Source of the DNA: Desulfurivibrio sp. | Lineage (GTDB): Bacteria; Desulfobacterota; Desulfobulbia; Desulfobulbales; SURF-16 | Assembly: GCA_003605035.1 (NCBI GenBank) | Contig: QZKJ01000007.1 | Span: 41,560-105,559, forward strand | DNA length: 64,000 bases | Direction: 5' to 3' | In this document: positions 44,805-62,219 of the stretch, piece by piece | Layout of the letters: every line of letters begins with the position of its first letter | Numbering within the stretch: position 1 is the first letter of the stretch | The notes under the pieces: model-generated | The model's database searches: none | Seen by the model: only the letters and a program-made list of their open reading frames with translations | Told to the model about the DNA's origin: nothing | Program-made: the position numbers and the translations under genes

Positions 44805-45698
44805 GTGATAATGACAGCAAAAATTATCAGCGGGACCGAGACCGCTAAAGCCATTCGCGAGGAACTCAAAACCGAAATCGCCGAGTTGAAGGAAAAGCAC
44901 AATGTCGTGCCCGGTCTGGTAACTATTCTTGTCGGTGAGGACCCTGCCTCCCAGTCCTACGTGAGCGCTAAAAATAAAACCGCCCACGCCCTGGGCATCC
45001 ATTCGGAGCAGGTGACTCTTGCCGCGGATAGTAGTGAACAGGAACTTCTTAATCTGATTGACAAATATAATAATGATGAGAAAATTCACGGCATTCTGGT
45101 GCAGCTCCCCCTGCCGAAACATATCAATGAAGCGAAAGTCCTCTATGCCATCAACCCGGACAAGGATGTGGACGGTTTTCATCCGGTCAACGTCGGCAAG
45201 ATGGTGCTGGGCGAACAGTGCTATCTTCCCTGCACACCCCACGGCATCCTTGAACTTTTGACCCGCAGCGGTGTCAATACTAGTGGTGCCGAGGTGGTGG
45301 TCATCGGCCGCAGCAATATTGTCGGCAAACCGATCAGCAACCTCATGCTGCAGAAACGGGACGCCGGCAACGCCACGGTTACCATCTGTCATACCCGCAC
45401 CAGGGACATGGCGGCCCATACCAGACGCGCCGACATCATCATCGCCGCGGTCGGCGTGCCGAAAATGGTCACCGCCGACATGGTCAAGGACGGGGTGGTG
45501 ATTATTGATGTCGGGGTTAACCGCATCGGCAAGACCGCGGACGGCAAGGCGATTCTTGCCGGTGATGTGGATTTTGACGCGGTCAAGGAAAAGGCTGCCG
45601 CCATTACTCCCGTCCCGGGCGGCGTTGGTCCCATGACCATAACCATGTTGATGAAAAATACCGTGCAGGCGGCCAGACTGGCTGCCGGCCTGATATAA
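44805..45698 (+). CDS. folD: Bifunctional methylene-THF dehydrogenase / methenyl-THF cyclohydrolase
   Basis: 297 aa (PGLVTILVGEDPASQSYV, GILVQLPLP, VVVIGRSNIVGKP, TPVPGGVGPMT). Confidence 0.96.
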   Translation: MIMTAKIISGTETAKAIREELKTEIAELKEKHNVVPGLVTILVGEDPASQSYVSAKNKTAHALGIHSEQVTLAADSSEQELLNLIDKYNNDEKIHGILVQLPLPKHINEAKVLYAINPDKDVDGFHPVNVGKMVLGEQCYLPCTPHGILELLTRSGVNTSGAEVVVIGRSNIVGKPISNLMLQKRDAGNATVTICHTRTRDMAAHTRRADIIIAAVGVPKMVTADMVKDGVVIIDVGVNRIGKTADGKAILAGDVDFDAVKEKAAAITPVPGGVGPMTITMLMKNTVQAARLAAGLI

Positions 45699-45717
45699 AC
45701 CTTGAGGGAGAAAAAAT

Positions 45718-47715
45718 ATGGCAATCTCAAGAAACGGATGTGAAGGCTGTACAGAGATAACCTGCACCTCCACGAAAAATGTTCTTGCCAAAGACATCGC
45801 AAAAAATGTCATTACCGCCTACGACCGGGTAAAGATGCGCGGCATGTCGGCCTGTCTTTTCGGTTCCACCGGCACCTGCTGCCGCAACTGCAATATGGGA
45901 CCCTGCCAGATCATCGATGGCGTTGATGAGATGATCGGCGTCTGCGGCGCCACGGCCGACACGGTGGTTGCCCGCAATTTCTGCCGCACCATTGCCTCCG
46001 GATCCGCCGCCCACACCGACCATGCCCGGGAAATGGTCAAAGGCTTCATTGCCACGGCCAAGGGCGAAACCCCTCATGAAATCAAGGATGTCAACAAGCT
46101 GATGATGCTGGCCAACATCTTCGGCGTGGCCACCGAGGGCAAGGACAAAAATGCCATTGCCCTGGAAATCGGTGAACTCGCCCTGGCGGATTTCGGCAAG
46201 CAGGACGACAAGCCGGTCACCATGCTGAAGCGTGCCCCGAAAAAACGCCAGGAACTGTGGAAACGGCTGGGCATCGAACCGCGCGGCATTGACCGGGAGG
46301 TGGTGGAGATCATGCACCGCACCCACATGGGCGTAGATCAGGAATACCAGAATCTCATGCTGCAGGGGGCCCGCTGCGCCCTGGGCGACGGCTGGGGTTC
46401 CTCCATGCTCTCCACCGAACTGACCGACATCATGTTCGGCACCCCGGTGCCCCGGCGGTCCATCGTCGATCTCGGCGTGCTCAAACCGGACCAGGTGAAT
46501 GTCACGGTGCACGGCCATGAGCCGCTGCTGGCCGAGGCCCTCTGTCTGGCCGCCCAGGACGAGGAACTGCTCGCCCTGGCCCGCAAGGTCGGCGCCAAGG
46601 GCATCAACCTGGCCGGGGTCTGCTGCACCGGCAATGAAATTCTCATGCGGCGCGGCATTCCGGTGGCGGCAGGCTTCATCCAGCAGGAAATGGCCCTGGC
46701 CACCGGCGCCATCGAGGCCATGGTGGTTGATGTGCAGTGCATCATGCAGTCGCTCGCCGAGGTGGCCAAATCCTTCCATACCGACGTGATCACCACCAAT
46801 TACCGGGCCAAGATGCCCGGCGCGGTGCACATCCAGTTTAATGAGGAGGACGCCCTGGGCAGCGCCAAGGAGATTCTCAAAAAAGCCGTCAACAACTTCA
46901 AGAAACGCGGCGAATTCTTTATTCCCCAGGACAACAAGCTCGATGTGGTGGTCGGTTTCAGCCATGAAACGATCAATTACATGCTGGGCGGCCGTTTCCG
47001 TTCAAGCTACCGGCCGCTCAACGACAACATCATCAACGGCAGAATCCGGGGCGTGGCCGCCATTGTCGGCTGTGACAACTACAAGTTTCCGGACAACAAT
47101 CATGAAATCATCGCCCGGGAACTGATCAAGAATGATGTGCTGGTGCTGGCCACCGGCTGCGCGGCCACCGGGCTCGGCCGGGTCGGGCTGGTCCGTCCCG
47201 AGGCCGCCCAGTTTGCCGGCCCCGGTCTGCGCGAGGTGTGCGAGACGGTTGGCATGCCTCCGGTGCTGCACTGCGGATCCTGCGTGGATAACAGCCGGCT
47301 GCTCATTGCCGCCACCGAGATGGTGCGCGAAGGCGGCCTGGGTGACGACATCTCCTCCCTGCCGCTAGCCGGCACCGCGCCGCTGTGGATGAGCGAGAAG
47401 GCGGTGGCCATTGGTCAGTACTTTGTGTCCAGCGGCGCCTATGTCATCTTCCAGAGTCTGCCGCTCACCGGCTCCAAGAATTTCCATAAATTCATGACCG
47501 AGGGAATGGATGAAATTTACGGCGGCTGCTGGGATATTGAAGAGGATCCGTTGAAGCTTGCCCGGAAGATGATTGCCAGGATCGATCTCAAGCGCAAGGA
47601 ACTCGGCATTGACAAGAAACGCGAAAGGGTTCTCTTTGATATGGAGATGCGCCGTGATCTGGGCGCCGGCAGCCCCCTGAAGGATGTCGGCTGCCACGGT
47701 CCGACGCCGGCCTGA
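45718..47715 (+). CDS. cooS: Anaerobic Ni-Fe carbon monoxide dehydrogenase catalytic subunit
   Basis: 665 aa. The N-terminal B/D-cluster Cys pattern is present (CLFGSTGTCCRNCNMGPC), and the C-cluster region has HGHEP, CCTGNE and GSCVDN. Confidence 0.95.
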   Translation: MAISRNGCEGCTEITCTSTKNVLAKDIAKNVITAYDRVKMRGMSACLFGSTGTCCRNCNMGPCQIIDGVDEMIGVCGATADTVVARNFCRTIASGSAAHTDHAREMVKGFIATAKGETPHEIKDVNKLMMLANIFGVATEGKDKNAIALEIGELALADFGKQDDKPVTMLKRAPKKRQELWKRLGIEPRGIDREVVEIMHRTHMGVDQEYQNLMLQGARCALGDGWGSSMLSTELTDIMFGTPVPRRSIVDLGVLKPDQVNVTVHGHEPLLAEALCLAAQDEELLALARKVGAKGINLAGVCCTGNEILMRRGIPVAAGFIQQEMALATGAIEAMVVDVQCIMQSLAEVAKSFHTDVITTNYRAKMPGAVHIQFNEEDALGSAKEILKKAVNNFKKRGEFFIPQDNKLDVVVGFSHETINYMLGGRFRSSYRPLNDNIINGRIRGVAAIVGCDNYKFPDNNHEIIARELIKNDVLVLATGCAATGLGRVGLVRPEAAQFAGPGLREVCETVGMPPVLHCGSCVDNSRLLIAATEMVREGGLGDDISSLPLAGTAPLWMSEKAVAIGQYFVSSGAYVIFQSLPLTGSKNFHKFMTEGMDEIYGGCWDIEEDPLKLARKMIARIDLKRKELGIDKKRERVLFDMEMRRDLGAGSPLKDVGCHGPTPA

Positions 47716-47785
47716 TGCGCACGGGAAACCCATATCCGTTCATTCCAGCAACTACTTTCAATTCTTCACATAAGGATATAACCGA

Positions 47786-50482
47786 ATGAAATCGGGAAGT
47801 CGTTTAGAAAGGATTCTGACCTCCGGGGGCTTTGCCGTGACCGGAGAACTGGGACCGCCTAAAAGCGGGGATCCCGAGGTCGTCAGGAAGAAGGCCGCCA
47901 TACTGCGCGGCCATGTGGACGCGGTCAACATCACGGACTGCCAGACTGCCATTGTCCGCATGTCAAGCATCGCCGCCGGACTCATCGCCCAGCAGGAGGG
48001 CGTGGAGCCGGTCATCCAGATGACCTGCCGTGACCGCAACCGCATCGGCATGCAGAGTGATATCTTAGGCGCCGCGGCCCTTGGTCTGAAAAATCTTCTC
48101 TGTCTGACCGGCGATCACCAGAAATTCGGCAACCACCCCGGCTCCAAGGGGGTATTTGATATGGATTCCATTCAGCTGCTCGGCATGGTCCGCGGCATGC
48201 GGGATGAGAAGAAGTTTCAATGCGGCGAGGCGATCAAATCCGCCGAGCCGCGGCTCTTTCTCGGCTGCGCCGCCAATCCCTTTGCCAATCCCTTTGAGTT
48301 CCGCGCCCCGCGGCTGGCCAAAAAGGTGGCGAGCGGCGCCGACTTCGTGCAAACCCAGATTATCTATAATGTTGAAAAATTCGCCAGGTTCATGGAAATG
48401 GCCCGCGACCTGGGGTTGCCCGAGAAGGTTTATATCCTCGCCGGCGTTACCCCGCCCAAATCGCTGGGCATGGCCCGCTACATGAAAAGTTCGGTGCCCG
48501 GCATGGATGTGACCGACGAGGTGATCAACCGCATGAAGGATGCCGCTGACAAGCAGGAAGAGGGCATCAATATCTGCGTGGATATCATCAATCGGGTCCG
48601 GGAAATCAAAGGGGTTTCCGGCGTGCATATCATGGCCATCGAGTGGGAGGAGGCGGTACCTGAGATCGTCAAGCGCGCCAAGCTCGAACCGCGGCCGGTA
48701 TTTGCCGAGGATGAGCGGCAGCCGGTGCAGGCAAAAGAGGTCATTGAAGTTGTTGCGCCTGCGGTGCAGCCGGCCGCGGCGCCCCCTGCGCTTGACACGG
48801 ACAAGCTGCTGGCTGAGGCCAGAGCAGAGGCGGAAAAAATCATTGCCGGCGCCCGTGCTGAAGTTGAAAAAATGCGAGCCGCAGCTGTTCTGCAAACAAC
48901 AGCCGGCTCAGCCCCAGAATATGAAGATGCAGGAGAGCATGAGATGAATGAAAAAGAACGTCAGATGGCGTTGCAGTCTGTGCAGATGGGTCTGAACGCC
49001 CTGAAAAAGGCCTTTAACCTGAGCGATGAGCAGTTTGAGGCCCTGGCTAGCTTTGCCAGCGCCGAGGCAGTGCTGAAACGCCAGCCGCCTGAAACCGCAA
49101 GCGCTGGATCTGTGATTGCACCAGTTGCCGCCGAGATGGTCAAACCCGCCCCGGATAAGGCGGCAGAAGAGGCCAACAAGGCCGCTGAAGCCAGGGACGC
49201 GGCAGAGGCAAAAAAGGCCGCAGAGGCAAAAGCTGCCGAAGAGGCCAGGAAAGCTGCTGAGGGAAAAGCTGCGGACGAGGCCAGGAAGGCCGCTGCGGCC
49301 AAGGCTGCTGAAGAAGCCAGGAAGGCTGCCGAAGCCAAAGCCGCTGAAGAGGCCCAAAAGGTAGCTGAAGCCAAAAAAACCGCTGATGCCAAAGCTGCGG
49401 AAGAGGCCAAGGCAGCAGAAGAGACCAAAAAGGCTGCTGAGGCAAAGGTAGCAGTCGCGCCTAAGGCCGTTGCCCCTGCCGGCGATCTGGCGGTAGCCGC
49501 GCTGGCCGTTGAAAAAACGCCTTTTGCCGAGCGCGCCAAAAAGATCCCGGCCGCTTCCTATCAGGTCAAATATACGGGACAGATTAAAGAGACGCTGCTC
49601 GGCAGCGGCGATAAGGCAATCAAAGTCGGTGGTGAATCCTCCATGCCCTTCCATCTTTTTGAAGGGGCCATGCCCAATAAGCCGCTGATCGCCATGGACG
49701 TGCTGGATGTGCAGCCCGAGGAGTGGCCGGACTCGCTGGCCCGCCATTTCAGCGGGGTGCTGGATAATCCGCTGGCCTGGGCCAGAAAATGCGTTGATGA
49801 CTACCAGGCGGAAGCACTCTGCCTCTCCCTGGTCAGCACCGATCCCAACGGCATGAACAGGAGCGCCGCGGAGGCGGCCAAGGTCGCCGCCGAGGTGATC
49901 AATAATATCAATGTGCCGATTATTATCTGGGGCTGCGGCAACGCCGACAAGGATACCGAGACGCTGCGGGAAATCACTTCGCTCACCGGCGACAAAAAGG
50001 TGTGCCTGGCGCCCCTTTCCGACAGCAATTACCGCTCCCTGGGCGCCACCGCCATGGCCTTCCAGTATCCCATGGTCGCTGCTTCGCCCATTGATGTCAA
50101 TCTCGCCAAACAGCTCAATATCCTGCTCGAGAACCTGGGGGTTTCCCTGAACTCCGTCATGATGGATCCGTCAGTCGGCGCTCTCGGCTACGGCATCGAG
50201 TATACCTATTCCGTCATGGAGCGCATCAGGCTGGCCGCGCTTACCCAGCAGGATGAAAAACTGCAGGTGCCGATCATCTGCAATCTGGGCCGGGAGGTCT
50301 GGAAGGCCAAGGAGTGTCGGCTTCCCTCTGATGCCGTGCTGGGAGATCAGGAGAGAAGAGGGGTGATGATGGAGGCGATCACTGCCACCTGCATGCTGCT
50401 GTCAGGCGGTGAGGTGCTGATCATGCGGCATCCCAAGGCCATCAATCTCACCAAGTCTCTGATCAACAGCCTGATAAGCTAA
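47786..50482 (+). CDS. Fusion protein: acetogen-type methylene-THF reductase (MetF) domain, a ~280-aa linker with Ala/Lys/Glu repeats, and a corrinoid Fe-S protein small subunit (AcsD/CdhD) domain
   Basis: One uninterrupted 898-codon ORF. Residues 1 to ~300 are MetF-like (VTGELGPPK, NITDCQTAIVRMSS, QMTCRDRNR, LCLTGDH). Residues ~590-898 are AcsD-like (VGGESSMPFHLFEG, IIWGCGNADKD, DPSVGALGYGIEYTYS). Confidence 0.9.
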   Translation: MKSGSRLERILTSGGFAVTGELGPPKSGDPEVVRKKAAILRGHVDAVNITDCQTAIVRMSSIAAGLIAQQEGVEPVIQMTCRDRNRIGMQSDILGAAALGLKNLLCLTGDHQKFGNHPGSKGVFDMDSIQLLGMVRGMRDEKKFQCGEAIKSAEPRLFLGCAANPFANPFEFRAPRLAKKVASGADFVQTQIIYNVEKFARFMEMARDLGLPEKVYILAGVTPPKSLGMARYMKSSVPGMDVTDEVINRMKDAADKQEEGINICVDIINRVREIKGVSGVHIMAIEWEEAVPEIVKRAKLEPRPVFAEDERQPVQAKEVIEVVAPAVQPAAAPPALDTDKLLAEARAEAEKIIAGARAEVEKMRAAAVLQTTAGSAPEYEDAGEHEMNEKERQMALQSVQMGLNALKKAFNLSDEQFEALASFASAEAVLKRQPPETASAGSVIAPVAAEMVKPAPDKAAEEANKAAEARDAAEAKKAAEAKAAEEARKAAEGKAADEARKAAAAKAAEEARKAAEAKAAEEAQKVAEAKKTADAKAAEEAKAAEETKKAAEAKVAVAPKAVAPAGDLAVAALAVEKTPFAERAKKIPAASYQVKYTGQIKETLLGSGDKAIKVGGESSMPFHLFEGAMPNKPLIAMDVLDVQPEEWPDSLARHFSGVLDNPLAWARKCVDDYQAEALCLSLVSTDPNGMNRSAAEAAKVAAEVINNINVPIIIWGCGNADKDTETLREITSLTGDKKVCLAPLSDSNYRSLGATAMAFQYPMVAASPIDVNLAKQLNILLENLGVSLNSVMMDPSVGALGYGIEYTYSVMERIRLAALTQQDEKLQVPIICNLGREVWKAKECRLPSDAVLGDQERRGVMMEAITATCMLLSGGEVLIMRHPKAINLTKSLINSLIS
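49154..49450 (+). repeat. Coding low-complexity repeat (KAAEEA/RKAAEAKAAEE)n within the MetF-AcsD linker
   Basis: The translation reads DKAAEEANKAAEARDAAEAKKAAEAKAAEEARKAAEGKAADEARKAAAAKAAEEARKAAEAKAAEEAQKVAEAKK.... Repetition is also visible at the nucleotide level. Confidence 0.8.
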
Positions 50483-50516
50483 GAAAACATACAGATAATC
50501 TGAGAGGAGCGATTCA

Positions 50517-52721
50517 ATGTCAAAAATAATCTGTTCTGCTGCTATCCGAGGCGCCCATAAGATCACTGATATGGCCGAGGAGAAATTTGAGGCAGCTTTA
50601 AAGAAATATGGTGCGGAGCAGGCGGTCTCCTTTCCCAATACCGCCTATTTCCTGCCGGTTATCTACAGCATGCTGGGTGCCAAGGTGGAAAAACTGGGCG
50701 ATATGAAGGATATCTTCCAGGAGTGCCGCAAGCTGCTGCCCCCCATGGTGAGCGAGCATAACTGGCTGCCCTATCTCGCCCCGGCCCTTGATGCCGGCAT
50801 GGCCACCTTTTTCGCCGAGGAGATGTATGAGGCGGTCCGCTATCTGGAGCAGCCCGAATACTATACCAAGACCGAGGATCCGACTGCCGGCAATATCTGG
50901 CTGGGCGCGGCGGATGACGTAATCTTCCGCAAACGCGGGGTGGAGTTTGTCGATGGCACGGCCCCCGGCTTTGCCGCCATCATGGGCTCGCCGGCCGACA
51001 AGGAGGTGGCCAGTAAGATCGCCCTGGAACTGCAGGAAAAAAATCTCTACATCTTCATGCATGACCACTCCAACGGGGTGAGAATGCCCGAGCAGCTGGT
51101 AAATAACAACGTTCAGGTCGGCTGGAACACCCGCCTGGTCCCCTTTGGCGACAGCTATACCACCGCGGTTTTCGCCATCGGCTTTGCCTGCCGCGTGGCC
51201 ATGGCCTTCGGCGGCATCAAGCCGGGCGATTACCGGGGCAACCTGATCTACAACAAGGACCGTACCTTTGCCTTTGTCATGGCCTTCGGCCCGGTCAGCG
51301 ACGAGTGGTACGCCAATGCCGCCGGCGCCATCAACTGGGGTTTCCCGACCATTTCCGACTATGATATTCCCGAGGTGCTGCCCACCGGCATCTGCACCTA
51401 TGAGCATGTGGTGAGCAAGGTGCCCCATGAGGAAATCGTCCAGAAGGCCATTGAGGTGCGGGGTCTCAAGGTCAACGTTGCCAAGATCGATATCCCCATG
51501 TCCTTCGGTCCGGCCTTTGAGGGTGAGAGGATCAGGAAGGATGATCTCTACATGGAATGCGGCGGCGGCAGGACCAGCGGCGTCGAGGTGCTCATCTCCA
51601 AGGACATGCACGATGTCGTGGACGGCGAGGTCATCCTCGAGGGCAAGGACATCTGTGACATCTCCCAGGGCCAGAACCTGCCCATCGCCATCCTGGTCGA
51701 GGTGGCCGGCCGCGAGATGCAGTCGGATTTCGAGCCGATCCTCGAGCGTCAGTTCCACCACCTGATCAACTACATCCAGGGCATCATGCACATCGGCCAG
51801 CGCAACATCATGTGGGTCCGCATCGGCAAGGCCGCGGTGGAGAAGGGTTTCTCCTTCAAACACATCGGCAAGGTGCTGCACGGCAAGCTGCATCAGGAGT
51901 TCGGCGCCATTCTCGACAAGGTGCAGGTGAAAATCTATACCGAACAGGCCAAGGTGGAGGAGGTGCAGGAACTGGCCAAGAAGGTCTATGCCGAGCGCGA
52001 CTTGCGGCTGGGCAACATGACCGATGAAACCGAGGAGGTTTTCTACTCCTGCACCCTCTGCCAGTCCTTTGCCCCCAGCCACGTCTGCGTCATCACCCCG
52101 GAAAGGGTGGGCATGTGCGGCGCCTACAACTGGCTGGACGGCAAGGCCTCCTTCCAGATCAACCCCACCGGGCCGAACCAGCCGATCGCCAAGGGTGAAT
52201 GCAGCGATCCGGTGCTGGGCGATTTCGTCGGCATCAACGAGTTCGTCAACCAGGCCTCCCGCGGCGCGGTGCCGGCGGTGAGCTGCTACTCGCTGATGAC
52301 CAACCCCATGACCGCCTGCGGCTGTTTTGAGGCCATTGCCGCCATGCTGCCCCAGTGCAACGGCATCATGGTGGTAAACCGCGACTACATGGGCATGACC
52401 CCCAGCGGCATGAAGTTCACCTCCCTGGCCGGTATGGCCGGCGGCGGGGCCCAGACCCCGGGTTTCATGGGCGTCAGCAAGCACTATCTGACCAGCCCGA
52501 AACTTTTCATGGCCGAAGGTGGTCTTAAAAGAGTGGTCTGGCTGCCCAAGATGCTCAAGGAAGAGCTGAAGGAAAAACTGATGGCGCGCTGCGAAGCCAT
52601 CGGCATGCCGGAGCTTTTTGACATGATCGCTGACGAGGAAGTGGGAACCACCGAAGAGGCGGTACTGGCCTTTCTCAAGGAGAAAGGTCATCCGGCGCTC
52701 AAAATGGAAACAGTTATGTAG
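50517..52721 (+). CDS. acsB: Acetyl-CoA synthase (CO-methylating; A-cluster subunit)
   Basis: 734 aa. The A-cluster ligands are present (CTLCQSFAPSHVC...GMCG, and the Cys-Gly-Cys in MTACGCFE). Confidence 0.96.
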   Translation: MSKIICSAAIRGAHKITDMAEEKFEAALKKYGAEQAVSFPNTAYFLPVIYSMLGAKVEKLGDMKDIFQECRKLLPPMVSEHNWLPYLAPALDAGMATFFAEEMYEAVRYLEQPEYYTKTEDPTAGNIWLGAADDVIFRKRGVEFVDGTAPGFAAIMGSPADKEVASKIALELQEKNLYIFMHDHSNGVRMPEQLVNNNVQVGWNTRLVPFGDSYTTAVFAIGFACRVAMAFGGIKPGDYRGNLIYNKDRTFAFVMAFGPVSDEWYANAAGAINWGFPTISDYDIPEVLPTGICTYEHVVSKVPHEEIVQKAIEVRGLKVNVAKIDIPMSFGPAFEGERIRKDDLYMECGGGRTSGVEVLISKDMHDVVDGEVILEGKDICDISQGQNLPIAILVEVAGREMQSDFEPILERQFHHLINYIQGIMHIGQRNIMWVRIGKAAVEKGFSFKHIGKVLHGKLHQEFGAILDKVQVKIYTEQAKVEEVQELAKKVYAERDLRLGNMTDETEEVFYSCTLCQSFAPSHVCVITPERVGMCGAYNWLDGKASFQINPTGPNQPIAKGECSDPVLGDFVGINEFVNQASRGAVPAVSCYSLMTNPMTACGCFEAIAAMLPQCNGIMVVNRDYMGMTPSGMKFTSLAGMAGGGAQTPGFMGVSKHYLTSPKLFMAEGGLKRVVWLPKMLKEELKEKLMARCEAIGMPELFDMIADEEVGTTEEAVLAFLKEKGHPALKMETVM

Positions 52722-52771
52722 CCTGGCGAATAGGCTTTTACATTTTTTATATGCGAACGAGGAGATAAACA

Positions 52772-54127
52772 ATGGCTCTTACTGGTATACAAATCCTTAA
52801 AATGCTCCCCAAAAAGAATTGCGGGGAGTGCGGGATTCCCACCTGTCTCGCCTTTGCCATGAAAGTTGCCGCCGGACAGGCTGAAATTGAAAAATGCCCT
52901 TATGTTTCCGAGGAGGCCAAAGCGACCATCGGCGAGGCGTCCGCGCCGCCGATCAGGACCATCAAGCTCGGGGCAGGCGAGTCCGCCTTCACCACCGGCG
53001 GCGAGACCTGCATGTTCCGCCATGAAAAACGCTTTGAGAATCCCACCGGCATCGCCGTACTGGTCGGGACGGACATGGCTGAGGCGGACATCGACGGCCG
53101 GCTCAGCCGCTTCAAGCAACTGCGCTATGAGCGGGTCGGCGTGCTGATGAAGGGCAGACTGGTGGCCGTCAAGGACAGCGATGGCGATCAGGGTAAATTT
53201 GTCGCCCTGGTCAACAAGGTGCTGGCCGGCGCGGATGATGCGGGCCTGATCCTCATGAGCGGCAAGCCGGAAAATCTGGCCGCCGGCGCCAAGGCCTGCG
53301 GAGAACGCAAGCCGCTGCTCTATGGCGCCACCGCTGACAATGCCGTTGCCATGGCCGCCATGGCCAAGGAAACCGGCTGTCCCCTGGGTGTGCGCGGCGC
53401 AAGCCTCGATGACAGTGTGGAGATTGCCGAAAAGCTGCTGGCCGAAGGGCTGAAGGATCTGGTCATTGACACTGGCGCCCGCACCATGAAGGCGGCCCTG
53501 GAAAACAATATCGTGGCCCGCCGCTCCGCCATCAAGTCCAAGTTCAAACCCCTGGGCTTTCCGTCCATTGCCTTTCCCTGTGAAATGACCGACGATCCCA
53601 TGCTGGAGGCGATGATCACCTCGGTGCTCATCGCCAAATACGCGGGCATTGTCGTATTGTCCGATCTGCAGGGCGATATCCTCTTTCCTCTGCTCCTTGA
53701 GCAGCTGAACATCTTCACCGATCCCCAGCGGCCCATGGTGGTGCAGGAAGACATTTACAGCGTCAACGGCCCGGCCGAGAATTCGCCGGTGCTGATCACC
53801 TGCAACTTCTCGCTGACCTATTTCATTGTTTCCGGCGAGATCGAAGGCAGCAAGGTGCCCTCCTGGCTGCTGATCAAGGACACCGAGGGCCTTTCCGTGC
53901 TGACCGCCTGGGCGGCAGGAAAATTCGGCGCTGACATGATCGCCCAGTTCATCAAGAAATCCGGCATCATGGACAAGATAAAACATCGCGAACTGATCAT
54001 CCCCGGCTATCTGGCCAGCATCAAGGGCGAGCTTGAGGAAGAGCTGCCCGAGTGGACCATCACCATCGGTCCCCGGGAGGCCGGCCATCTTCCCGCTTTC
54101 CTCAAGGAGTGGAAGCCGGCTGCCTGA
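52772..54127 (+). CDS. acsC: Corrinoid iron-sulfur protein large subunit
   Basis: 451 aa. The N-terminal 4Fe-4S motif is KKNCGECGIPTCLAFAMKV....C, followed by a TIM-barrel and a corrinoid-binding C-terminus. Confidence 0.95.
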   Translation: MALTGIQILKMLPKKNCGECGIPTCLAFAMKVAAGQAEIEKCPYVSEEAKATIGEASAPPIRTIKLGAGESAFTTGGETCMFRHEKRFENPTGIAVLVGTDMAEADIDGRLSRFKQLRYERVGVLMKGRLVAVKDSDGDQGKFVALVNKVLAGADDAGLILMSGKPENLAAGAKACGERKPLLYGATADNAVAMAAMAKETGCPLGVRGASLDDSVEIAEKLLAEGLKDLVIDTGARTMKAALENNIVARRSAIKSKFKPLGFPSIAFPCEMTDDPMLEAMITSVLIAKYAGIVVLSDLQGDILFPLLLEQLNIFTDPQRPMVVQEDIYSVNGPAENSPVLITCNFSLTYFIVSGEIEGSKVPSWLLIKDTEGLSVLTAWAAGKFGADMIAQFIKKSGIMDKIKHRELIIPGYLASIKGELEEELPEWTITIGPREAGHLPAFLKEWKPAA

Positions 54128-54151
54128 TGCGCCAGGCTGCGGATCTTTGCA

Positions 54152-54174
54152 GGGGGCGGTCGCGAACCGCCCCC
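54152..54174 (+). terminator. GC-rich hairpin between acsC and fdhA (terminator or attenuator candidate)
   Basis: GGGGGCGGT pairs with ACCGCCCCC around a CGCGA loop. Only a weak T-run follows. Confidence 0.45.
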
Positions 54175-54188
54175 GCGGTGTCTTTGGA

Positions 54189-54214
54189 GTAAATTTGCAG
54201 TTATTACGAATCCA
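54189..54214 (+). promoter_or_regulatory. Conserved 26-nt box, copy 1 (upstream of fdhA)
   Basis: GTAAATTTGCAGTTATTACGAATCCA matches the copy at 58355-58380 at 24 of 26 positions. Confidence 0.5.
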
Positions 54215-54235
54215 ACAGTATATTTTTAGCAAATA

Positions 54236-57200: not shown

Positions 57201-58351
57201 ATTACGTCACCGGCACCGACCGGGTGAAGAGCATTGCCAACCTCGCCATGCTGTGCGGCAAGGTCGGGGTGGAAGGCGGCGGCTGCAACCCGCTGCGCGG
57301 CCAGAACAATGTGCAGGGCGCCTGCGACATGGGGGCCCTGTTCAATACCCTGCCCGGCTATGCCAGCCTGAGCAACGAAGACCTGTTCGACCGCTATGAA
57401 CGGATGTGGAAGGTCAAGCTGCCCAGGCGTCCCGGCAAACCGGCCACCGAGGTGTGGGACAACATCCTGAAGGGGGAAATTCATTCCCTGTACATCTTCG
57501 GCGAGGACCCGGCAGTGGCGGACGCCAACATCTCCCACGTGCAGGCTGCCCTGGAAAAATGTGATTTCGTGGTGGTGCAGGACATCTTCATGACCAAAAC
57601 CGCCCAGATGGCTGATGTGGTGCTGCCCGCCGCCTGTTTTGCTGAAAAGGACGGCACCTTCACCAGCACCGAGCGCCGGGTGCAGCGGGTGCGCAAGGCA
57701 GTCGACCCGCCCGGGGAAGCCCGGCCGGACTGGAAGATCTTCGGCGATCTCTCCAGGAAAATGGGCTACGAGATGAACTACCGCTCGCCCAGGGAGGTTT
57801 TCGAAGAGGTTTGCACCATTCTGCCCCAGTATGCCGGCTTGAGCTATGAACGGCTGGAGAAAGTGGGCCTGCAGTGGCCGGTGCCCACGGCGGATCATCC
57901 CGGCACCCCGGTCCTGCACACCAGGGAGTTCACCCGCGGCAGGGGCCTTTTTATTCCGGAGGATTATATCCCGCCGGTTGAGGTGGCCGATCAGGAGTAT
58001 CCCCTGCAGTTCACCACCGGACGTGATCTGTCCCGCTACAACTTCAGCAGCATGACCGGCAAGACCCGGGAGATCAATGCCATCAGTCCCGAGTGCTTTG
58101 CCGAGTTCCACCCCGAGGACGCGAAACTTTTCGGCATTGAGGACAAAGATTCGGTACGCTTGACCTCGCGCCGCGGCTCAGTGGTGCTGCGGGCCAAGGT
58201 GACGGACCGCACCCAGCAGGGTACGGTATTTGCCACCTACAACCATGTTGAGGCGCTGGTCAATCTGCTGACCCTGGACGCCCTTGACCGCCTGTCCCGG
58301 ACGCCGGAGTACAAGCTGTGCGCCATCAAGGTGGAAGTGGTTGATGCATAA
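54236..58351 (+). CDS. fdhA: Selenocysteine-containing formate dehydrogenase catalytic subunit fused to N-terminal 2Fe-2S ferredoxin and GltD-like NAD(P)H/FAD modules (UGA-Sec at 56717-56719)
   Basis: Track ORFs 54236..56719 and 56732..58351 are in the same frame and separated only by a TGA. The junction reads [30 protein letters not shown], the FDH active-site motif. The MopB 4Fe-4S motif is CPYCGAGC. The GltD-like part carries VIGGGPAGLTGAYYL. Confidence 0.9.
56734..56746 (+). other. SECIS-like hairpin downstream of the fdhA UGA
   Basis: GGCCA-GUC-UGGCC begins 15 nt after the UGA. This is positionally equivalent to the apical stem-loop of the E. coli fdhF SECIS. Confidence 0.6.
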
Positions 58352-58354
58352 AGG

Positions 58355-58380
58355 GTAAATTTTCAGTTTTTACGAATCCA
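58355..58380 (+). promoter_or_regulatory. Conserved 26-nt box, copy 2 (upstream of hdrA)
   Basis: GTAAATTTTCAGTTTTTACGAATCCA begins 4 nt after the fdhA stop and lies about 80 nt upstream of the hdrA ATG. Confidence 0.5.
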
Positions 58381-58460
58381 TTAAATCAATAACTTGATCG
58401 CCCCTGCAGCTCTTTTGCCTGCTGAACAGGACGGTCGGCAATCCATACACGGAGTAAACC

Positions 58461-61400
58461 ATGGGTCACGCAGAAGAAAGTAAATCGGGAGCAGTGCTGG
58501 TCGTAGGCGGCGGAGTCGCCGGCGTCCAGGCGGCCCTCGACCTGACCGAACTCGGCTATTATGTTTATCTGGTTGAAAAATCAGCGGCTGTGGGTGGCGC
58601 CATGGCCCAGCTTGACAAAACCTTCCCAACCAATGACTGCTCACTCTGAATTCTCGCGCCGAAGCTGGTAGAGGCCGGTCGGTCTCCCAATATCGAAATA
58701 CTGAGCAACGCCGATTTCCTTTCCCTGGCTGGCAAGCCCGGGGATTTCCAGGCCAGGATCCGCCTGAACCCCCGCTACATCGATGCGGACAAATGTACAG
58801 CCTGCGGACTGTGCACCCAATACTGCCCGCGGCATATGGTGGATGCCTATAACGAGGGGCTGAAAATCACCCGGCCCATTCATATCGATTATCCCCAGGC
58901 CGTGCCGGCCACCTATTACATTGATCCCGGCGCCTGCCTGCATCTCAAGCATGGCACCTGTAAAATCTGTGTGCCGGTATGCCGCAGCCACGCCATTGAT
59001 TTCAGCCAGCAGCCCGAGGAACGCACCCTGCAGGTCGGGGCGGTGATCATGGCCCCGGGTTTTGGCAAGGTGCCGGATAAGGCCCTGGAGAAATACAGCT
59101 ACGGCAAGCATCCCGACGTGGTCACCAGCATCGAGTTTGAAAGGCTGCTCAATCCTTCCGGCCCCTTCCAGGGCGAGGTCCGCTGCATCTCCGACCATCG
59201 TCATCCGCACAAAATCGCCTTTATTCAGTGCGTCGGCTCCCGGGACATCGGCTGTGACAACGGCTACTGTTCATCGGTCTGCTGCATGTACTCCATCAAA
59301 GAGGCCATGGTGGCCAAGGAGCATGATCCGGACTGTGAGATCACCATCTTCTACATGGACATGCGCACCCAGGGCAAGGATTTTGACGCGGCCCGCACCC
59401 GGGCTGAAGAGCAGTTCGGCATCAAGTTTGTCCGGGCCAAGGTGGCTGATGTCATGCCGTGGGGCAAACAGCTGAAACTGACCTACTCCACCCTGGCCGC
59501 CAGTCACCATTTCGAGGCCTTTGACATGGTGGTCCTCTCCGTCGGGCTTGACTCGCCCAAAAGCGCAGGGGAGCTGGCGCAGATCGGCGGTTTCGCGCTC
59601 AATAAATACGATTTCTGCCAGACCGATACCTTTGCCCCGCTCAATACCAGCAGGGAAGGCATCTTTGTGGCCGGCGCCTTTCAGGGACCGAAAGACATCC
59701 CGGAAAGCGTCACCCAGTCCAGCGCCGCCGCCGGTATTGCCTCAGCCCTGATCAAACAGCAGCGCGGCACCGGCATTGTGCATAAGGCCTATCCCGACGA
59801 ACAGCAGGTCAAGGCCGGGGATGAGGTGCGCATCGGCGTGTTTGTCTGCCGCTGCGGCATCAACATTGCCGGTACGGTTGATGTGCCGCAGGTGGTCGAT
59901 TATGCCGGCAACATGGAAAACGTCGTCTATTTCAGCGACAGCCTGTACAGTTGCTCCCAGGATGCCCAGGAGGTGATCAAGGAGCAGATCAAAAAACACA
60001 AGTTGAATCGCATCGTCATGGCCGCCTGCTCGCCGCGGACCCACGAGCCGCTTTTCCAGGAGACCCTGAAAGACGCCGGCCTCAACCGCTCGCTGTTTGA
60101 GATGGTCAATATCCGCGACCAGTGCTCCTGGGTGCATGCCAATGAACCGGACGAGGCAACGGATAAGTCCAGGGATCTGGTCCGCATGGGGGTTGCCAAG
60201 GCCCGGCTGAGCCAGCCCCTGCCCGAACAGACCGTGCCCGTCACCCCCCAGGCCCTGATTATCGGCGGCGGGGTGGCTGGCCTTACCGCGGCCGAGAACC
60301 TGGCCAATCAGGGGTTCCAGTGCTATCTCATTGAAAAAAATGACAGACTGGGCGGTCATGCGGTCAAGGCCCAGGATACCCTGCAGGGCGAAAACACCGC
60401 GAAGATGATGCAGGAACTGATTCATCGCGTGCAGCAGCATGAGAAGATCGAGGTGATGGCCGGGGCCGAGCTGGCGGCGGTCAACGGTTTTGTCGGCAAC
60501 TTTTCCTCGGTGGTCAAAATGACCAGAGGCACTGAGGAGACGGAACAGACCATTGATCACGGGGTGATTATCATCGCCACCGGCGGCAGGGAACACCGGC
60601 CGGACAGGTATCTGCTCGGTCAGGTGAAAAAGGTCGTCACCCAGCAGGAGCTGGAGACCCGTCTGGCCGGCAAGGCCAGGGACCGGGCTCCGGAATCGGT
60701 GCTGATGATCCAGTGCGCCGGTTCCCGCGGGGATGATCTCAAGTACTGCAGCAAGGTATGCTGTAATACGGCCGTAAAAAATGCCTTGAAGATCAAGGAG
60801 ATCAATCCCGCCTCCCAGGTGATTGTCCTGTACCGGGATATGCGCACCTATGGGTATGCCGAGGACGCCTATCAGCTGGCCCGCGAAAAAGGGGTGGTTT
60901 TCATCCCCTACGAGCTGGACCGCAAGCCCGAGGTGGAAAAGAAGGGCAACAGGGTGCAGGTCAACTTCTTTGATCCCATCCTGCAGGAAGATGTCTCGCT
61001 CAGTCCCGAACTGATTGTGCTCAGTGTCGGCATTGTGCCGGAGGATACGGAAAACCTCAGCAAGCTGCTGAAGATCCCGGTCAATGAAAACAAATTCTAT
61101 CTGGAGGCCCACGTTAAACTGCGGCCGGTGGAGCTTGCCGTGGATGGCGTCTATGTCTGCGGGCTGGCCCATTCCCCCAAACCCCTGGACGAGGTGATTG
61201 TCCAGGCCCAGGCCGCGGCTGCCAAGGCCTCCATCCCGCTGATCAAGGGCTTTGTCTCCGTTGAGCCGATCGTCTCCTCGGTGGACCAGGAGATCTGTAT
61301 CGGCTGCGGCATCTGCGCCGGCCTCTGTCCCTATCAGGCAATCCAGATGATCAAGGTGGACAACAAAAAGAAGGCGGAAACCATTGCCGCCTCCTGCAAG

Positions 61401-61505
61401 GGGTGCGGCATCTGCTCTTCCCGCTGCCCGACCTTTGCCATCTCCATGGGCGGTTTTACCCGGGAACAGATCAATGCCCAGATCAAGGCGTTCGGGGAAA
61501 TTTGA
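58461..61505 (+). CDS. hdrA: Selenocysteine-containing heterodisulfide reductase subunit A-like flavoprotein, tandem double-HdrA architecture (UGA-Sec at 58647-58649)
   Basis: Track ORFs 58461..58649 and 58836..61505 are in the same frame. My hand translation across the gap gives ...[28 protein letters not shown]..., the HdrA NDCSMC(I) motif with U at the second Cys. There are two GxGxxG modules ([15 protein letters not shown] at aa 14 and [15 protein letters not shown] at about aa 600), several ferredoxin CxxCxxCxxxCP motifs, and the internal CRCGINI domain. Confidence 0.9.
58671..58686 (+). other. SECIS-like hairpin downstream of the hdrA UGA
   Basis: GAGGCC-GGUC-GGUCUC forms a 6-bp stem (including one G-U pair) with a GGUC loop, as in E. 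coli fdhF. It begins 21 nt after the UGA. Confidence 0.5.
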
Positions 61506-61510
61506 AAAAA

Positions 61511-61607
61511 CCAGGTGTTCAGGTGTTTAGTCTGTAGTCTTTTAGTCATAGTCTTTCAGCTAAACACCTAATAACCTAAACATCTAAACACCTAAATACC
61601 TAAACGA
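61511..61607. repeat. Intergenic element of the same family as 31709-31880: a hairpin plus an 8-bp-periodic CTAAAnnn array
   Basis: CAGGTGTT occurs twice. AGGTGTTTAG (61521-61530) pairs with CTAAACACCT (61560-61569). TAGTCTGTAG is shared with position 31721. Six 8-mers (CTAAACAC CTAATAAC CTAAACAT CTAAACAC CTAAATAC CTAAACGA) occupy 61560-61607. Confidence 0.85.
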
Positions 61608-61615
61608 GGTATCGA

Positions 61616-62215
61616 ATGACCATTGAAGAATTCAACCCCAAGATCCTGGGGTTTCTCTGTAACTGGTGCTGTTACGCCGCCGCCGATGCGGCAGGGGTCT
61701 CCCGTTACCAGTATCCGCCCAACCTGCGCACCATCAGGGTCATGTGCACCGGACGCATCGACCCCGCCTTTATCCTGCAGGGTTTTGCCGAGGGCGCGGC
61801 CGGCATCTTCACCGGCGGCTGACAGCTTGGTGAATGCCATTACCAGGTTGGTAATTACGACGCCATGAGTGTCAATGCGCTGGTCAAGCGGGTGCTGGAG
61901 GGCATCGGGGTAAATCCCGCCCGTTATAATCTGCAGTGGGCCTCAGCTGCCGAGGCCCCACGCTTTGTCAAGCTCATCACCGAGTTTACCAAAAAGATTC
62001 GCGAGCTGGGGCCGCTCGGTCATGCCGAGGGCATCAAGCCCGATGAGCTCAAGGCGCGGATCAACAAGGCAGTTGAGCTGGTCAACAGCCAGAAGCTGCG
62101 CATGAGCTTCGGCACCACTACCAGGGCCCTGCGCAAGGACAATGATTACAGCGATGCCCATATCGTGGAAGTGATTGATGCCAAGCTGGGCAAGGCCATT
62201 GCCGGCGGTCTGTAA
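61616..62215 (+). CDS. mvhD: Selenocysteine-containing MvhD/VhuD-like [2Fe-2S] electron-transfer protein (UGA-Sec at 61820-61822)
   Basis: Track ORFs 61616..61822 and 61865..62215 are in the same frame. The junction reads ...GAAGIFTGG-U-QLGECHYQVGNY, the MvhD GCxxGxCHY motif with U at the first Cys. The N-terminus is also MvhD-like (KILGFLCNWCCY...RVMCTGRIDP). Confidence 0.88.
61839..61855 (+). other. SECIS-like hairpin downstream of the mvhD UGA
   Basis: ATTACC-AGGTT-GGTAAT begins 16 nt after the UGA. Confidence 0.5.
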
Positions 62216-62219
62216 CAAG

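Follow-up and report, generated by a model that had tools for sequence, protein, structure and literature searches.

A Wood-Ljungdahl operon typical of Desulfurivibrio-like Desulfobulbales closes with three selenoprotein redox genes that probably rely on partners encoded elsewhere

The window, the 64 kb stretch of Desulfurivibrio sp. DNA analysed here, carries Wood-Ljungdahl pathway genes followed by genes for a formate dehydrogenase (FDH), HdrA and MvhD, raising the question of what these three redox proteins do in a region where the expected partners MetV, HdrB and HdrC are not encoded. The block is a lineage-typical Wood-Ljungdahl operon of Desulfurivibrio-like Desulfobulbales, ending in a three-gene selenoprotein redox module (Table 1). 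A sequence-only reading had proposed a co-directional run of folD, cooS, metF::acsD, acsB, acsC, FDH, hdrA and mvhD; all eight genes were found on the + strand at or near the coordinates it gave (44805-62215), and its gene identities, including the NAD(P)H type of the FDH, were correct. The Wood-Ljungdahl region starts 5′ of that run, with fhs. A PilB/GspE-type ATPase gene occupies the same position in nearly all related loci and is labelled 'pulE' in Fig. 3 of PMC5016858; its D. dismutans orthologue has low abundance, and the gene, although syntenic, is probably outside the pathway.

Table 1. Features of the Wood-Ljungdahl region, in window coordinates.
Feature	Coordinates	Strand	Evidence
fhs, formate-tetrahydrofolate ligase	40391..42199	+	Pfam FTHFS, 761 bits
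PilB/GspE-type ATPase with MshEN and cNMP-binding domains	42370..44589	+	TIGR02538, 759 bits
folD, methylene-THF dehydrogenase/cyclohydrolase	44805..45698	+	Pfam THF_DHG_CYH and THF_DHG_CYH_C
cooS/acsA, Ni-CODH catalytic subunit	45718..47715	+	TIGR01702, 633 bits, above its cutoff
metF::acsD fusion, 898 aa	47786..50482	+	Pfam MTHFR and CdhD; NF003376, 373 bits
acsB, acetyl-CoA synthase	50517..52721	+	NF040764, 1074 bits
acsC, CFeSP large subunit	52772..54127	+	NF003195, 589 bits
Fused FdhB/A-type Sec formate dehydrogenase, 1371 aa	54236..58351	+	TIGR01591, 857 bits; Pfam architecture
hdrA, Sec double HdrA, 1014 aa	58461..61505	+	NF040770 HdrA2, 956 bits
mvhD, 'long' Sec MvhD with C-terminal extension, 199 aa	61616..62215	+	Pfam FlpD, 163 bits
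Hairpin at operon end	62218..62287	+	dG -40.9 kcal/mol, z -7.5
hyuA-like hydantoinase/oxoprolinase A, exceeding the window end	62291..64000	+	Pfam Hydantoinase_A and Hydant_A_N

The strong hairpin previously placed at the operon end was borne out, with 26 pairs, an equal stability in 0 of 200 shuffles, and a short 3′ U-rich tail that extends into the start of hyuA. It is likely an intrinsic terminator or processing site, and was not listed by a consensus terminator scan because its loop exceeds 8 nt. The hyuA-like gene is unrelated to the operon and is the 3′ neighbour of mvhD in the closest relatives only.

The metF::acsD product consists of MetF (aa 1-300; MTHFR Pfam match at aa 7-298), an A/E/K-rich repeat linker (aa ~300-590; 36/72-nt tandem repeats at 49157-49454) and the CFeSP small subunit AcsD (aa ~592-897; CdhD/AcsD match at aa 592-897), and is a single ORF in 50 of 54 related loci. 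Judged by conservation, the three in-frame TGA codons already read as selenocysteine (Sec) are real Sec codons and not lesions, since the TGA and its flanks are conserved at the same positions in related loci. The position is kept in 68 of 69 motif matches for FDH (56717-56719, Sec828, 'EHCARL-U-HAPT'; one match has TGT), in 59 of 59 for HdrA (58647-58649, Sec63, '[14 protein letters not shown]') and in 51 of 51 for MvhD (61820-61822, Sec69, 'GG-U-QLGECHY'), the last two tallies including the window's own copy.

By its domain sequence, the FDH protein combines a Sec-FdhA that has all its catalytic elements and an NfnB/StnC-like FAD-NAD(P)H module in one chain. Its first ~685 residues comprise a [2Fe-2S] domain and an NfnB/GltD/StnC-like FAD-NAD(P)H module, followed by two [4Fe-4S] clusters and a Mo/W-bisPGD FdhA with Sec828; U-H and 'LRGQNNVQG' motifs are present. 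The N-terminal 684 aa score 464-469 bits against 8OH5_C and 9BOV_A, aligning end to end (464 bits) with StnC of the Sporomusa Stn transhydrogenase (8OH5), and 250 bits against NfnI-L (NfnB; 5JCA_L), the NfnI large subunit and a bifurcating NADPH-FAD module. In StnC the FDH-like C-terminal part is non-catalytic, whereas the FdhA part encoded in the window retains Sec, His, Arg and the full Mo/W-bisPGD domain. D. alkaliphilus carries an alternative FDH type ('ARY-U-HSPT') with ~54% identity to the window FDH.

HdrA is, on its domain sequence, a fused pseudo-heterodimer. Module 1 (aa 12-~450) has a TrxR-like FAD domain with an inserted ferredoxin domain and Sec63, while module 2 (aa 454-1014), 28% identical to it, has the HdrA N-terminal Fe-S domain, a divergent flavin domain without the Cys197 motif or the inserted ferredoxin, and a C-terminal ferredoxin domain. 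In phmmer alignments to methanogen HdrA (5ODC_A), residues 12-332 match 146-461, with Sec63 at Cys197, and residues 454-608 and 829-1009 match 2-156 and 467-647. The protein has exactly one copy each of the methanogen (HdrA)2 functional elements, namely the N-terminal Fe-S domain, Cys197 (Sec63), and the inserted and C-terminal ferredoxin domains; across 53 orthologues, the Sec and 33 of the 36 Cys vary little or not at all. Complementary loss of Cys197 and the N-domain has been reported in fused HdrAs, Moorella's included (Chadwick et al., PMC9012536). HdrAs encoded next to metVF in other phyla are colinear with the window protein; the one in a Chloroflexi hdrA-mvhD-metV-metF-hdrCB cluster shares 46% identity across the full length of the window HdrA, and another MAG splits the two modules into neighbouring genes beside mvhD-metV-metF-hdrC-hdrB. 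HdrL-type relatives have an NfnB/GltD-like module fused into the same double HdrA, which provides a Rosetta-stone link between NfnB/GltD-like and HdrA flavin modules. An HdrL identity for the window protein itself was rejected, as it lacks the GltD insertion of true HdrL-type relatives.

The absence of MetV, AcsE, CooC, HdrB and HdrC genes from the 64 kb, as previously noted, held in three kinds of search. Pfam and NCBIfam scans of most non-shadow window ORFs of at least 150 aa, a few being left out (41-778 on the + strand; 28532-29062), found no Pterin_bind, MTHFR_C, CCG, HdrC or CooC family; tblastn of the window with MetV, AcsE, HdrC-like and short-MvhD proteins from a Desulfobacteraceae MAG (L081) gave no MetV or AcsE match and only weak cross-hits; and no CooC-type P-loop or HdrB CCG motif occurs in the six frames of the window. 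MetV/HdrC-type partner genes were also not found within 10 kb of acsC in 80 relatives, and no CCG-domain (HdrB/HdrD-like) protein is encoded in or beside the module in the window, L081, L083 or D. dismutans.

The relatives suggest where such partners lie. The same gene order occurs in 80 of 80 related Desulfobulbales loci, among them D. alkaliphilus (L041) and D. dismutans (L059). In D. alkaliphilus AHT2, strain MLMS-1 and D. dismutans AMeS2 the order fhs ... pulE/pilB, folD, acsA, mthfr/acsD fusion, acsB, acsC, fused FdhAB, HdrA, MvhD is identical (PMC5016858; PMC12142623), with protein identities of 65-85% and shared Sec codons. The window represents a different species from the named Desulfurivibrio strains: its AcsC is 91-92% identical to the best species representatives and exactly matched in MAGs GCA_040756855.1 and GCA_049325115.1. 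Other genomes share the arrangement, which has already been described in cultured relatives, so that the novelty implied earlier does not stand; a 2016 paper shows the mthfr/acsD fusion and this gene order in D. alkaliphilus and MLMS-1 (PMC5016858), and co-location and co-expression of fused FdhAB, HdrA and MvhD with pathway genes were discussed for D. dismutans in 2025, where RS08760-08725 show similar expression throughout (PMC12142623). A separate operon encoding an HdrC-like di-ferredoxin (188 aa), MvhD (141 aa) and MetV (222 aa) is present in L083-85 and D. dismutans (RS09145/40/35), and in the latter these proteins have proteome abundances similar to those of Wood-Ljungdahl pathway enzymes. 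D. dismutans also has two abundant AcsE-like 'dihydropteroate synthases' and MetV at loci other than the operon, consistent with the earlier expectation that AcsE and MetV must be encoded elsewhere. In L081 all parts, AcsE among them, form one cluster (folD, cooS, double HdrA, panB, DUF2520, long MvhD, HdrC-like, short MvhD, MetV, MetF, AcsD, AcsB, AcsC, AcsE, fused FDH) with unfused metF and acsD, and proteins 49-73% identical to those of the window (MetF 73%, AcsD 53%). The window's long MvhD shares 58% identity with its 263-aa counterpart in L081, against only 29-30% with short, MetV-adjacent MvhDs. In the source organism, MetV, a second MvhD, an HdrC-like ferredoxin and AcsE are thus probably encoded elsewhere and not missing, MetV, the short MvhD and the HdrC-like protein being placed there from relatives; HdrB could likewise lie elsewhere in the genome.

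The best overall explanation, to which we give an even chance, is a lineage-typical operon whose products would couple an NfnB-like NAD(P)H/formate dehydrogenase to a version of the Moorella-type MetFV-Hdr-MvhD system without HdrB. Moorella thermoacetica MetFV-HdrABC-MvhD is a methylene-THF reductase complex according to the accounts of Mock et al. (2014) given in PMC5736913 and PMC6295475, and its second acceptor is not proven. We infer that the proteins would assemble as an HdrB-less relative of this complex, in which NAD(P)H or formate would supply the FDH protein with electrons that pass through the long MvhD to an Fe-S cluster common to the HdrA module-2 N-domain and Sec63, and on to the module-1 FAD as the putative bifurcation point. 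From there, one branch would reach ferredoxin by way of the inserted ferredoxin domain. The second would leave by the C-terminal ferredoxin domain and run over the HdrC-like protein, the short MvhD and MetV to MetF for the reduction of methylene-THF; the methyl-THF formed may then be passed towards the corrinoid protein by the long flexible tether to AcsD. The high-potential acceptor would be methylene-THF and not a disulfide, which would explain the absence of HdrB. How two MvhD paralogues share one N-domain/Cys197 entry site, and hence the wiring of the second MvhD, is speculative.

Acetogen-type MetF, MvhD, MetV (in the window's relatives) and a double HdrA with complementary Cys197/N-domain loss (PMC9012536) are common to this system and Moorella. 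Unlike the Moorella complex, the window system lacks HdrB, has HdrC replaced by a protein combining an HdrC N-half and a ferredoxin (as seen in relatives), has a second, long MvhD, a MetF fused to AcsD, three Sec residues and an attached NfnB-like Sec-FDH, and has MetV, short MvhD and the HdrC-like protein unlinked from HdrA. As in the methanogen Fdh-MvhD-HdrABC(-Fmd) bifurcating complexes (7BKB, 5ODC), an FdhA-type catalytic subunit adjoins MvhD and HdrA, and the HdrA domains align at 480-640 bits with Sec at the Cys197 position; however, an NfnB/GltD-like NAD(P)H module takes the place of the FdhB F420 module, HdrBC and a heterodisulfide are absent, and in place of a homodimer there is a fused pseudo-heterodimeric HdrA. 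Desulfobacterium autotrophicum HRM2 (hdrA/hdrL-mvhD-fdhB-fdhA) and Desulfobacula toluolica (HdrBCA-MvhD-FdhBA) also encode Sec HdrA, MvhD and cytoplasmic FdhA together, but with separate FdhB and FdhA genes outside the acs operon, and HdrL itself carries the GltD-like module.

These last loci lie away from metF, so the FDH module may function on its own. Two independent enzymes are a less likely alternative: FDH, long MvhD and double HdrA would form a self-contained bifurcating or confurcating FDH/CO2 reductase linking formate, NAD(P)H (at the NfnB-like site) and ferredoxin, MetF::AcsD, MetV, short MvhD and the HdrC-like protein would form a separate ferredoxin- or NADH-dependent methylene-THF reductase, and co-location would reflect a shared pathway only. 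Contiguity of fdhA, hdrA and mvhD in about 60 genomes agrees with this, as do the D. autotrophicum genes outside Wood-Ljungdahl clusters, HdrBCA-MvhD-FdhBA in D. toluolica and Chloroflexi, the separate short MvhD, MetV and HdrC-like operon of Desulfobulbales, and the low identity of the two MvhD types (~30%). Conversely, the window HdrA is colinear with the L086 HdrA directly beside metV-metF, where L087 has a split HdrA; in L081 HdrA and long MvhD adjoin HdrC-like, short MvhD, MetV and MetF genes, with FDH about 7 kb away; and an HdrC-like partner is sensible only if docked on the C-terminal ferredoxin domain of HdrA.

A sulfur-carbon link has been put forward for D. dismutans from co-localisation and similar expression (PMC12142623), in which HdrA ('HdrL') would take DsrC/DsrAB electrons during sulfur oxidation and pass them to FDH, directly or via NAD(P)H, for CO2 reduction. 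The sulfur disproportionation or sulfide oxidation lifestyle of the host lineage fits this idea, which we nevertheless regard as improbable: the module and its surroundings encode no CCG-domain protein for a DsrC disulfide or trisulfide in the loci listed above, the window HdrA is not an HdrL, and its orthologues are metVF-linked in phyla that do not cycle sulfur. Least probable, to the point of being very doubtful, is the truly minimal hub of the sequence-only reading, with HdrA and MvhD alone coupling FDH to the MetF domain in a genome without MetV or HdrC-type partners, as the absence of such genes from the window and the acsC surroundings would allow, since a cultured relative with the same operon abundantly expresses MetV, the second MvhD and the HdrC-like ferredoxin, their three-gene operon recurs by sequence in L083-85, and MetV dependence is the rule in this MetF clade.

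What remains plausible of that proposal is a bifurcating or confurcating hub of FDH, HdrA, MvhD and MetF, with which the L081 cluster and the metVF-adjacent HdrAs agree; its minimality, without HdrC and MetV, does not fit the separate operon of the relatives. HdrB looks like the sole dispensable component, and the three Sec redox genes probably serve to supply CO2 and folate reduction with electrons, with the help of partners encoded elsewhere.

The sequence-only reading had described a run of genes from folD to a TGA-containing mvhD, closed by a strong terminator, and ORF, profile and folding evidence places these genes and a closing hairpin in the window. The hairpin was missed by a consensus terminator scan and found by direct folding; an unrelated hydantoinase gene lies directly 3′ of it. 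The same reading had reported no hdrBC, metV, acsE or cooC in the window. Pfam and NCBIfam scans of long ORFs found no AcsE, MetV, CooC, HdrB or HdrC there, tblastn with genuine MetV, AcsE and HdrC-like proteins found no MetV or AcsE, and six-frame motif searches found no CooC-type P-loop and no HdrB CCG motif. Since the three tests agree and the gene run is present, the observation is confirmed. The remaining genes of the window have ATP synthase, chemotaxis, c-di-GMP, LpxB, MutY, UvrC, NifUS and ThyX functions. At the window start, ATP synthase alpha/beta-type, a and b subunit genes are arranged separately and may form an additional N-type-like ATPase operon, after which comes a large chemotaxis cluster.

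Features of the window (window coordinates)
Feature	Position	Strand	Remarks
ATP synthase genes	536-6483	-
Chemotaxis cluster	8.9-16.9 kb
fhs	40391-42199	+	start of the 40.4-62.2 kb run
PilB/GspE-type ATPase	42370-44589	+	between fhs and folD
folD	44805-45698	+
cooS/acsA	45718-47715	+
metF::acsD fusion	47786-50482	+	898 aa
Tandem repeats in the fusion linker	49157-49454		36/72 nt
acsB	50517-52721	+
acsC	52772-54127	+
Formate dehydrogenase (FDH)	54236-58351	+	1371 aa; TGA 56717-56719 in 'EHCARL-U-HAPT'
HdrA	58461-61505	+	1014 aa; TGA 58647-58649 in a 14-letter motif
hdrA-mvhD intergenic gap	61506-61615
Reverse complement of the 8-nt repeat	61512-61535		CAGGTGTT x2 / GGTGTTTAG
8-nt repeat	61560-61605		CTAAACAC x5.8
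MvhD	61616-62215	+	199 aa; TGA 61820-61822 in 'GG-U-QLGECHY'
Terminal hairpin	62218-62287		26 pairs; dG -40.9 kcal/mol, z -7.5

At the species level the block is a new representative of a published, widespread operon type built from known families. A scan with AcsC, one genome per species, gave 363 relatives, and the best 80 of these, examined for synteny by tblastn, are all Desulfobulbales, including Desulfurivibrio alkaliphilus, D. dismutans, Desulfurivibrio sp. D14AmB, Hydrosulfovibrio ferrireducens and Ca. Desulfobia. On contigs of sufficient length the order was pilB, folD, cooS, metF::acsD, acsB, acsC, fdhA, hdrA, mvhD, with two loci (L027 and L079) as exceptions, and gene order across the 80 loci places the window in this Desulfurivibrionaceae/Desulfobulbales-type operon. 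The exact window AcsC occurs in two Thermodesulfobacteriota MAGs (GCA_040756855.1 and GCA_049325115.1), whose contigs end at or near hyuA and in which NCBI annotates products of 1371, 1014 and 199 aa. In the D. alkaliphilus genome paper, the abbreviations of the Wood-Ljungdahl gene figure, which follows Pierce et al. (2008) for strain MLMS-1, include 'mthfr/acsD ... fusion' and 'pulE' (PMC5016858). In D. dismutans, a fused FdhAB with neighbouring HdrA and MvhD was described in 2025, the three being co-localised with pathway genes and similarly expressed (PMC12142623).

The PilB/GspE-type ATPase, with N-terminal MshEN (c-di-GMP-binding) and C-terminal cNMP-binding domains, sits between fhs and folD in almost every one of the 80 loci and is the 'pulE' of the D. 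alkaliphilus figure; its orthologue in D. dismutans is present at a much lower level than the enzymes of the pathway. The exceptional L027 (MAG SZUA-615) carries a variant cluster of pilB, folD, unfused acsD, a divergent acsB (47%), acsC and fdhA, without cooS or metF.

The FDH, HdrA and MvhD genes each contain one in-frame TGA. Among motif matches at related loci the TGA was kept in 68 of 69 for FDH, 59 of 59 for HdrA and 51 of 51 for MvhD (the last two tallies include the window copy), and Cys occupies the Sec sites in homologues at L081, a Desulfobacteraceae MAG locus, and at L001. The three genes thus have the marks of selenoprotein genes: an in-frame UGA, conserved across species, with Cys in homologues. 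Hairpins can be drawn downstream of the UGAs, most clearly in mvhD (an 11-bp stem 3 nt after the UGA), and folding there was no better than in shuffles (z +0.5, +0.5 and -1.4 for the three genes). A pseudogene reading was rejected, given that the TGAs and their flanks are conserved in 51-68 genomes and that D. dismutans has full-length products, both annotated and detected. The gap between hdrA and mvhD holds a tandem 8-nt repeat which, with its reverse complement upstream, could form a long intergenic hairpin; the repeat is kept in the closest relatives (L003-L005) and not in two others (L006 and L010).

MetF and AcsD are encoded by a single 898-aa ORF without stops, as in 50 of 54 complete cases among relatives. 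The MetF part is of the acetogen type (PF02219, ~300 aa; Pfam MTHFR 127 bits, profile 2-286/287) and is 70-75% identical to MetV-adjacent MetFs. An A/E/K-rich linker of ~290 aa joins it to AcsD; linker length varies, and the whole fusion measures 858-925 aa in 50 orthologues. The linker repeats tend to interrupt assemblies, and the contigs of both MAGs with the exact AcsC start inside metF::acsD.

The N-terminal 684 aa of FDH align end to end with StnC 8OH5_C (464 bits), with 9BOV_A (469 bits) and with NfnI-L (250 bits). The C-terminal part is a complete FdhA (TIGR01591, 857 bits), with the active-site Sec and His in 'CARL-U-HAPT' and the arginine motif 'LRGQNNVQG'. Two FDH types share this operon slot among relatives, a window-like 'ARL-U-HAPT' type (64-94% identity) and an 'ARY-U-HSPT' type (54-57%) that includes D. 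alkaliphilus, as if the FDH gene had been replaced in place. Loci noted at the FDH position are L001, L007, L009, L012, L041 (D. alkaliphilus), L065, L066, L075 and L077, and in L001 a Cys codon (TGT) stands in place of Sec. MvhD, 110 nt downstream of hdrA (Pfam FlpD 163 bits), is the long paralogue with a C-terminal extension and shares only about 30% identity with the short MvhDs encoded beside MetV.

The HdrA is double, with module 1 at aa 12-~450 and module 2 at aa 454-1014, and aligns with M. thermolithotrophicus HdrA (5ODC_A) as three permuted pieces. Residues 12-332 match 5ODC_A 146-461, the TrxR-like FAD domain with its inserted ferredoxin domain; residues 454-608 match the N-terminal Fe-S domain (2-156), and residues 829-1009 the C-terminal ferredoxin domain (467-647). 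Sec63 coincides exactly with Cys197 of 5ODC_A. The second flavin module (aa ~598-830) shares only 28% identity with the first, and module 2 has the N-domain and lacks the Cys197 motif and the inserted ferredoxin domain. The Sec and 33 of the 36 Cys show little or no variation across 53 orthologues. The protein follows the 'complementary Cys197/N-terminal domain' pattern of fused HdrAs acting as 'their own heterodimeric partners', which was also ascribed to the HdrA of the Moorella MetFV-HdrABC-MvhD complex (Chadwick et al., PMC9012536). The window HdrA is colinear with, and 46% identical to, the HdrA of a Chloroflexi hdrA-mvhD-metV-metF-hdrCB cluster (L086), and L087 encodes the two modules by two genes side by side, in the order acsB-acsC-hdrAa-hdrAb-mvhD-metV-metF-hdrC-hdrB ... 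cooC ... acsE.

A family search with HdrA aa 64-1014 returned 2520 clusters at 50% identity (E <= 1e-30), mostly about 1000 aa long. Longer relatives (1330-1500 aa) carry a GltD/NfnB-like insert within module 1, at aa ~155-550, and represent the 'HdrL' type; the insert lies just ahead of the position that corresponds to the start of the inserted ferredoxin domain of the window HdrA. In three of these long relatives (P0362, P0363 and P0370) a Fer4_20 + Pyr_redox_2 insert follows about residue 100 of module 1. Pfam found no Fer4_20 in the window HdrA, and the label 'HdrL', which denotes the HdrA/GltD fusion of D. autotrophicum, was rejected for it, as it has no such insert.

The apparent gaps at MetV and AcsE are explained by genes at other loci, as judged from relatives. 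The D. dismutans proteome table lists, away from the pathway operon, a three-gene operon (RS09145/40/35) for a 188-aa 4Fe-4S dicluster protein, a 140-aa 'hydrogenase iron-sulfur subunit' (MvhD) and a 222-aa MetV, annotated 'MTHFR C-terminal domain-containing protein' (RS09135), as well as two 'dihydropteroate synthases' at other loci (RS03225, 296 aa; RS05075, 263 aa), all about as abundant as the pathway enzymes (PMC12142623). 'Dihydropteroate synthase' is the PGAP name for the AcsE family, and no Desulfurivibrio entry was among the best 120 AcsE homologues; it is annotation, size and abundance that suggest an AcsE in that genus. By sequence, L083-L085 carry the same three-gene operon, for HdrC-like (188 aa), MvhD (141 aa) and MetV (222 aa) proteins, the first combining an HdrC/QmoC-like N-terminal half with a 2x[4Fe-4S] ferredoxin. 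An AcsE encoded elsewhere, as had been predicted, is consistent with the relatives, as is a MetV encoded elsewhere: both have candidates at other loci of D. dismutans, and MetV is also present in L083-L085. MetV (PF12225) gave no tblastn match in the window or the 80 related loci, and no MetV, AcsE or HdrC-like partner flanks mvhD in D. dismutans. At 6682-9527 of L083-L085 the operon is followed directly by the molybdenum-cofactor genes mobB, mobA and moeA, an arrangement that may tie the cofactor supply of FDH to expression of the MetV module. A 242-aa CbiA-like gene beside the metV operon in L083 is BioD, not CooC. In D. dismutans, RS05075 adjoins an MttB-family methyltransferase and an abundant corrinoid protein (RS05075-RS05085), suggesting a route from methylated amines to methyl-THF in a bacterium described as obligately autotrophic.

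The most telling locus, L081, has all parts in one unfused cluster: folD, cooS, double HdrA (1008 aa), panB, DUF2520, long MvhD (263 aa), HdrC-like (192 aa), short MvhD (139 aa), MetV (222 aa), MetF (309 aa), AcsD, AcsB, AcsC, AcsE (294 aa, Pterin_bind) and fused FDH (1369 aa). Identities to the window are 59% for HdrA, 58% for long MvhD, 73% for MetF, 53% for AcsD and 49% for FDH, and the operon of Desulfobulbales therefore has the look of a derivative shaped by rearrangement. In it metF would have fused to its neighbour acsD, hdrA and long mvhD would have moved behind the FDH gene, and the HdrC-like, short-mvhD, metV and acsE genes would have dispersed; none of these four lies within 10 kb of acsC in the 80 loci.

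The window shares the acetogen-type MetF of the Moorella system, and the mapping of U63 to C197 and the colinearity with L086 extend the likeness to HdrA. In contrast to that system, MetV is encoded at another locus in relatives, and the window has neither HdrC nor, by Pfam and motif searches for CCG domains, HdrB. In L081, L083 and D. dismutans no HdrB (CCG) adjoins HdrA or MetV, and the HdrC counterpart there is only a ferredoxin like the N-terminal half of HdrC. With the methanogen Fdh-MvhD-HdrABC system the window shares the FdhA active-site residues and an MvhD (FlpD) adjacent to HdrA; the F420-binding FdhB is replaced by an NfnB/GltD/StnC-like partner, and the heterodisulfide-reducing HdrBC module is absent. 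The system thus appears to be an HdrB-less derivative of the Moorella type, an incremental step. In the literature on the operon we did not find stated this derivation, the Sec63 at Cys197, the MetV-side partners as a separate operon in the lineage, or the unfused all-in-one cluster in Desulfobacterales, each likewise incremental.

From domain maps, cofactor-ligand conservation and synteny in several phyla, we infer as most likely an electron path, all parts of which are expressed in D. dismutans. The double HdrA would supply one complete methanogen-like bifurcation path: a [2Fe-2S] MvhD would feed an Fe-S cluster to which Sec63 and the N-domain of module 2 both contribute, and electrons would pass to the module-1 FAD. 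One branch would then run via the inserted ferredoxin domain to ferredoxin and the other via the C-terminal ferredoxin domain. In methanogens the latter docks HdrC, then HdrB. Here it would lead through the HdrC-like protein, short MvhD and MetV to MetF, and with methylene-THF as the high-potential acceptor HdrB would be unnecessary. Long MvhD would connect the NfnB-like/FDH protein, with its NAD(P)H and formate/CO2 sites, and the repeat-built linker of variable length would tether MetF to the corrinoid protein. Textbook potentials are about -320 mV for NAD(P)H, -430 mV for CO2/formate and -200 mV for methylene-THF. That the NfnB-like Sec-FDH, double HdrA, two MvhDs, HdrC-like ferredoxin and MetV-MetF~AcsD form one HdrB-less supercomplex, bifurcating NAD(P)H to CO2 reduction to formate and to methylene-THF reduction, is a bold proposal that we regard as unlikely.

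Alternatively, there may be two independent enzymes, the FDH-MvhD-HdrA trio being self-sufficient (reducing CO2 with NADPH and reduced ferredoxin, for instance) and MetFV, short MvhD and the HdrC-like protein forming a separate reductase; D. autotrophicum and D. toluolica have hdrA-mvhD-fdhBA loci that are not near metF, which speaks for such a division, and the consistent metVF linkage of the window HdrA family speaks against it. A DsrC to HdrL to FDH route, as proposed for D. dismutans (PMC12142623), seems very improbable, given that no CCG-domain partner lies in or next to the module in the window, L081, L083 or D. dismutans and that the window HdrA is not an HdrL. The minimal hub without MetV or HdrC put forward in the sequence-only reading deserves hardly any credence, contradicted as it is by the separate HdrC-like/short-MvhD/MetV operon of relatives (L083-L085, D. 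dismutans).

A single supercomplex, if true, would link the first reductive step of the methyl branch to its last, as a bacterial counterpart of methanogenic Fmd-Hdr (Wolfe-cycle) coupling, and the MetF::AcsD linker would tether it physically to the corrinoid protein. The energetic wiring of the methylene-THF reductase step is a long-standing question in the Wood-Ljungdahl pathway, and no second electron acceptor has been proven for the Moorella MetFV-HdrABC-MvhD complex. As a kind of system, what the window holds is not new. The Desulfobulbales version is naturally simplified and rearranged: it lacks HdrB, has MetF and AcsD in one protein and carries an attached NAD(P)H/formate module. The lineage is a sensible one for tests of the energetic coupling of methylene-THF reduction. 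Because the operon occurs in the cultivable autotrophs D. alkaliphilus and D. dismutans, it offers a reasonable system for testing bifurcation.
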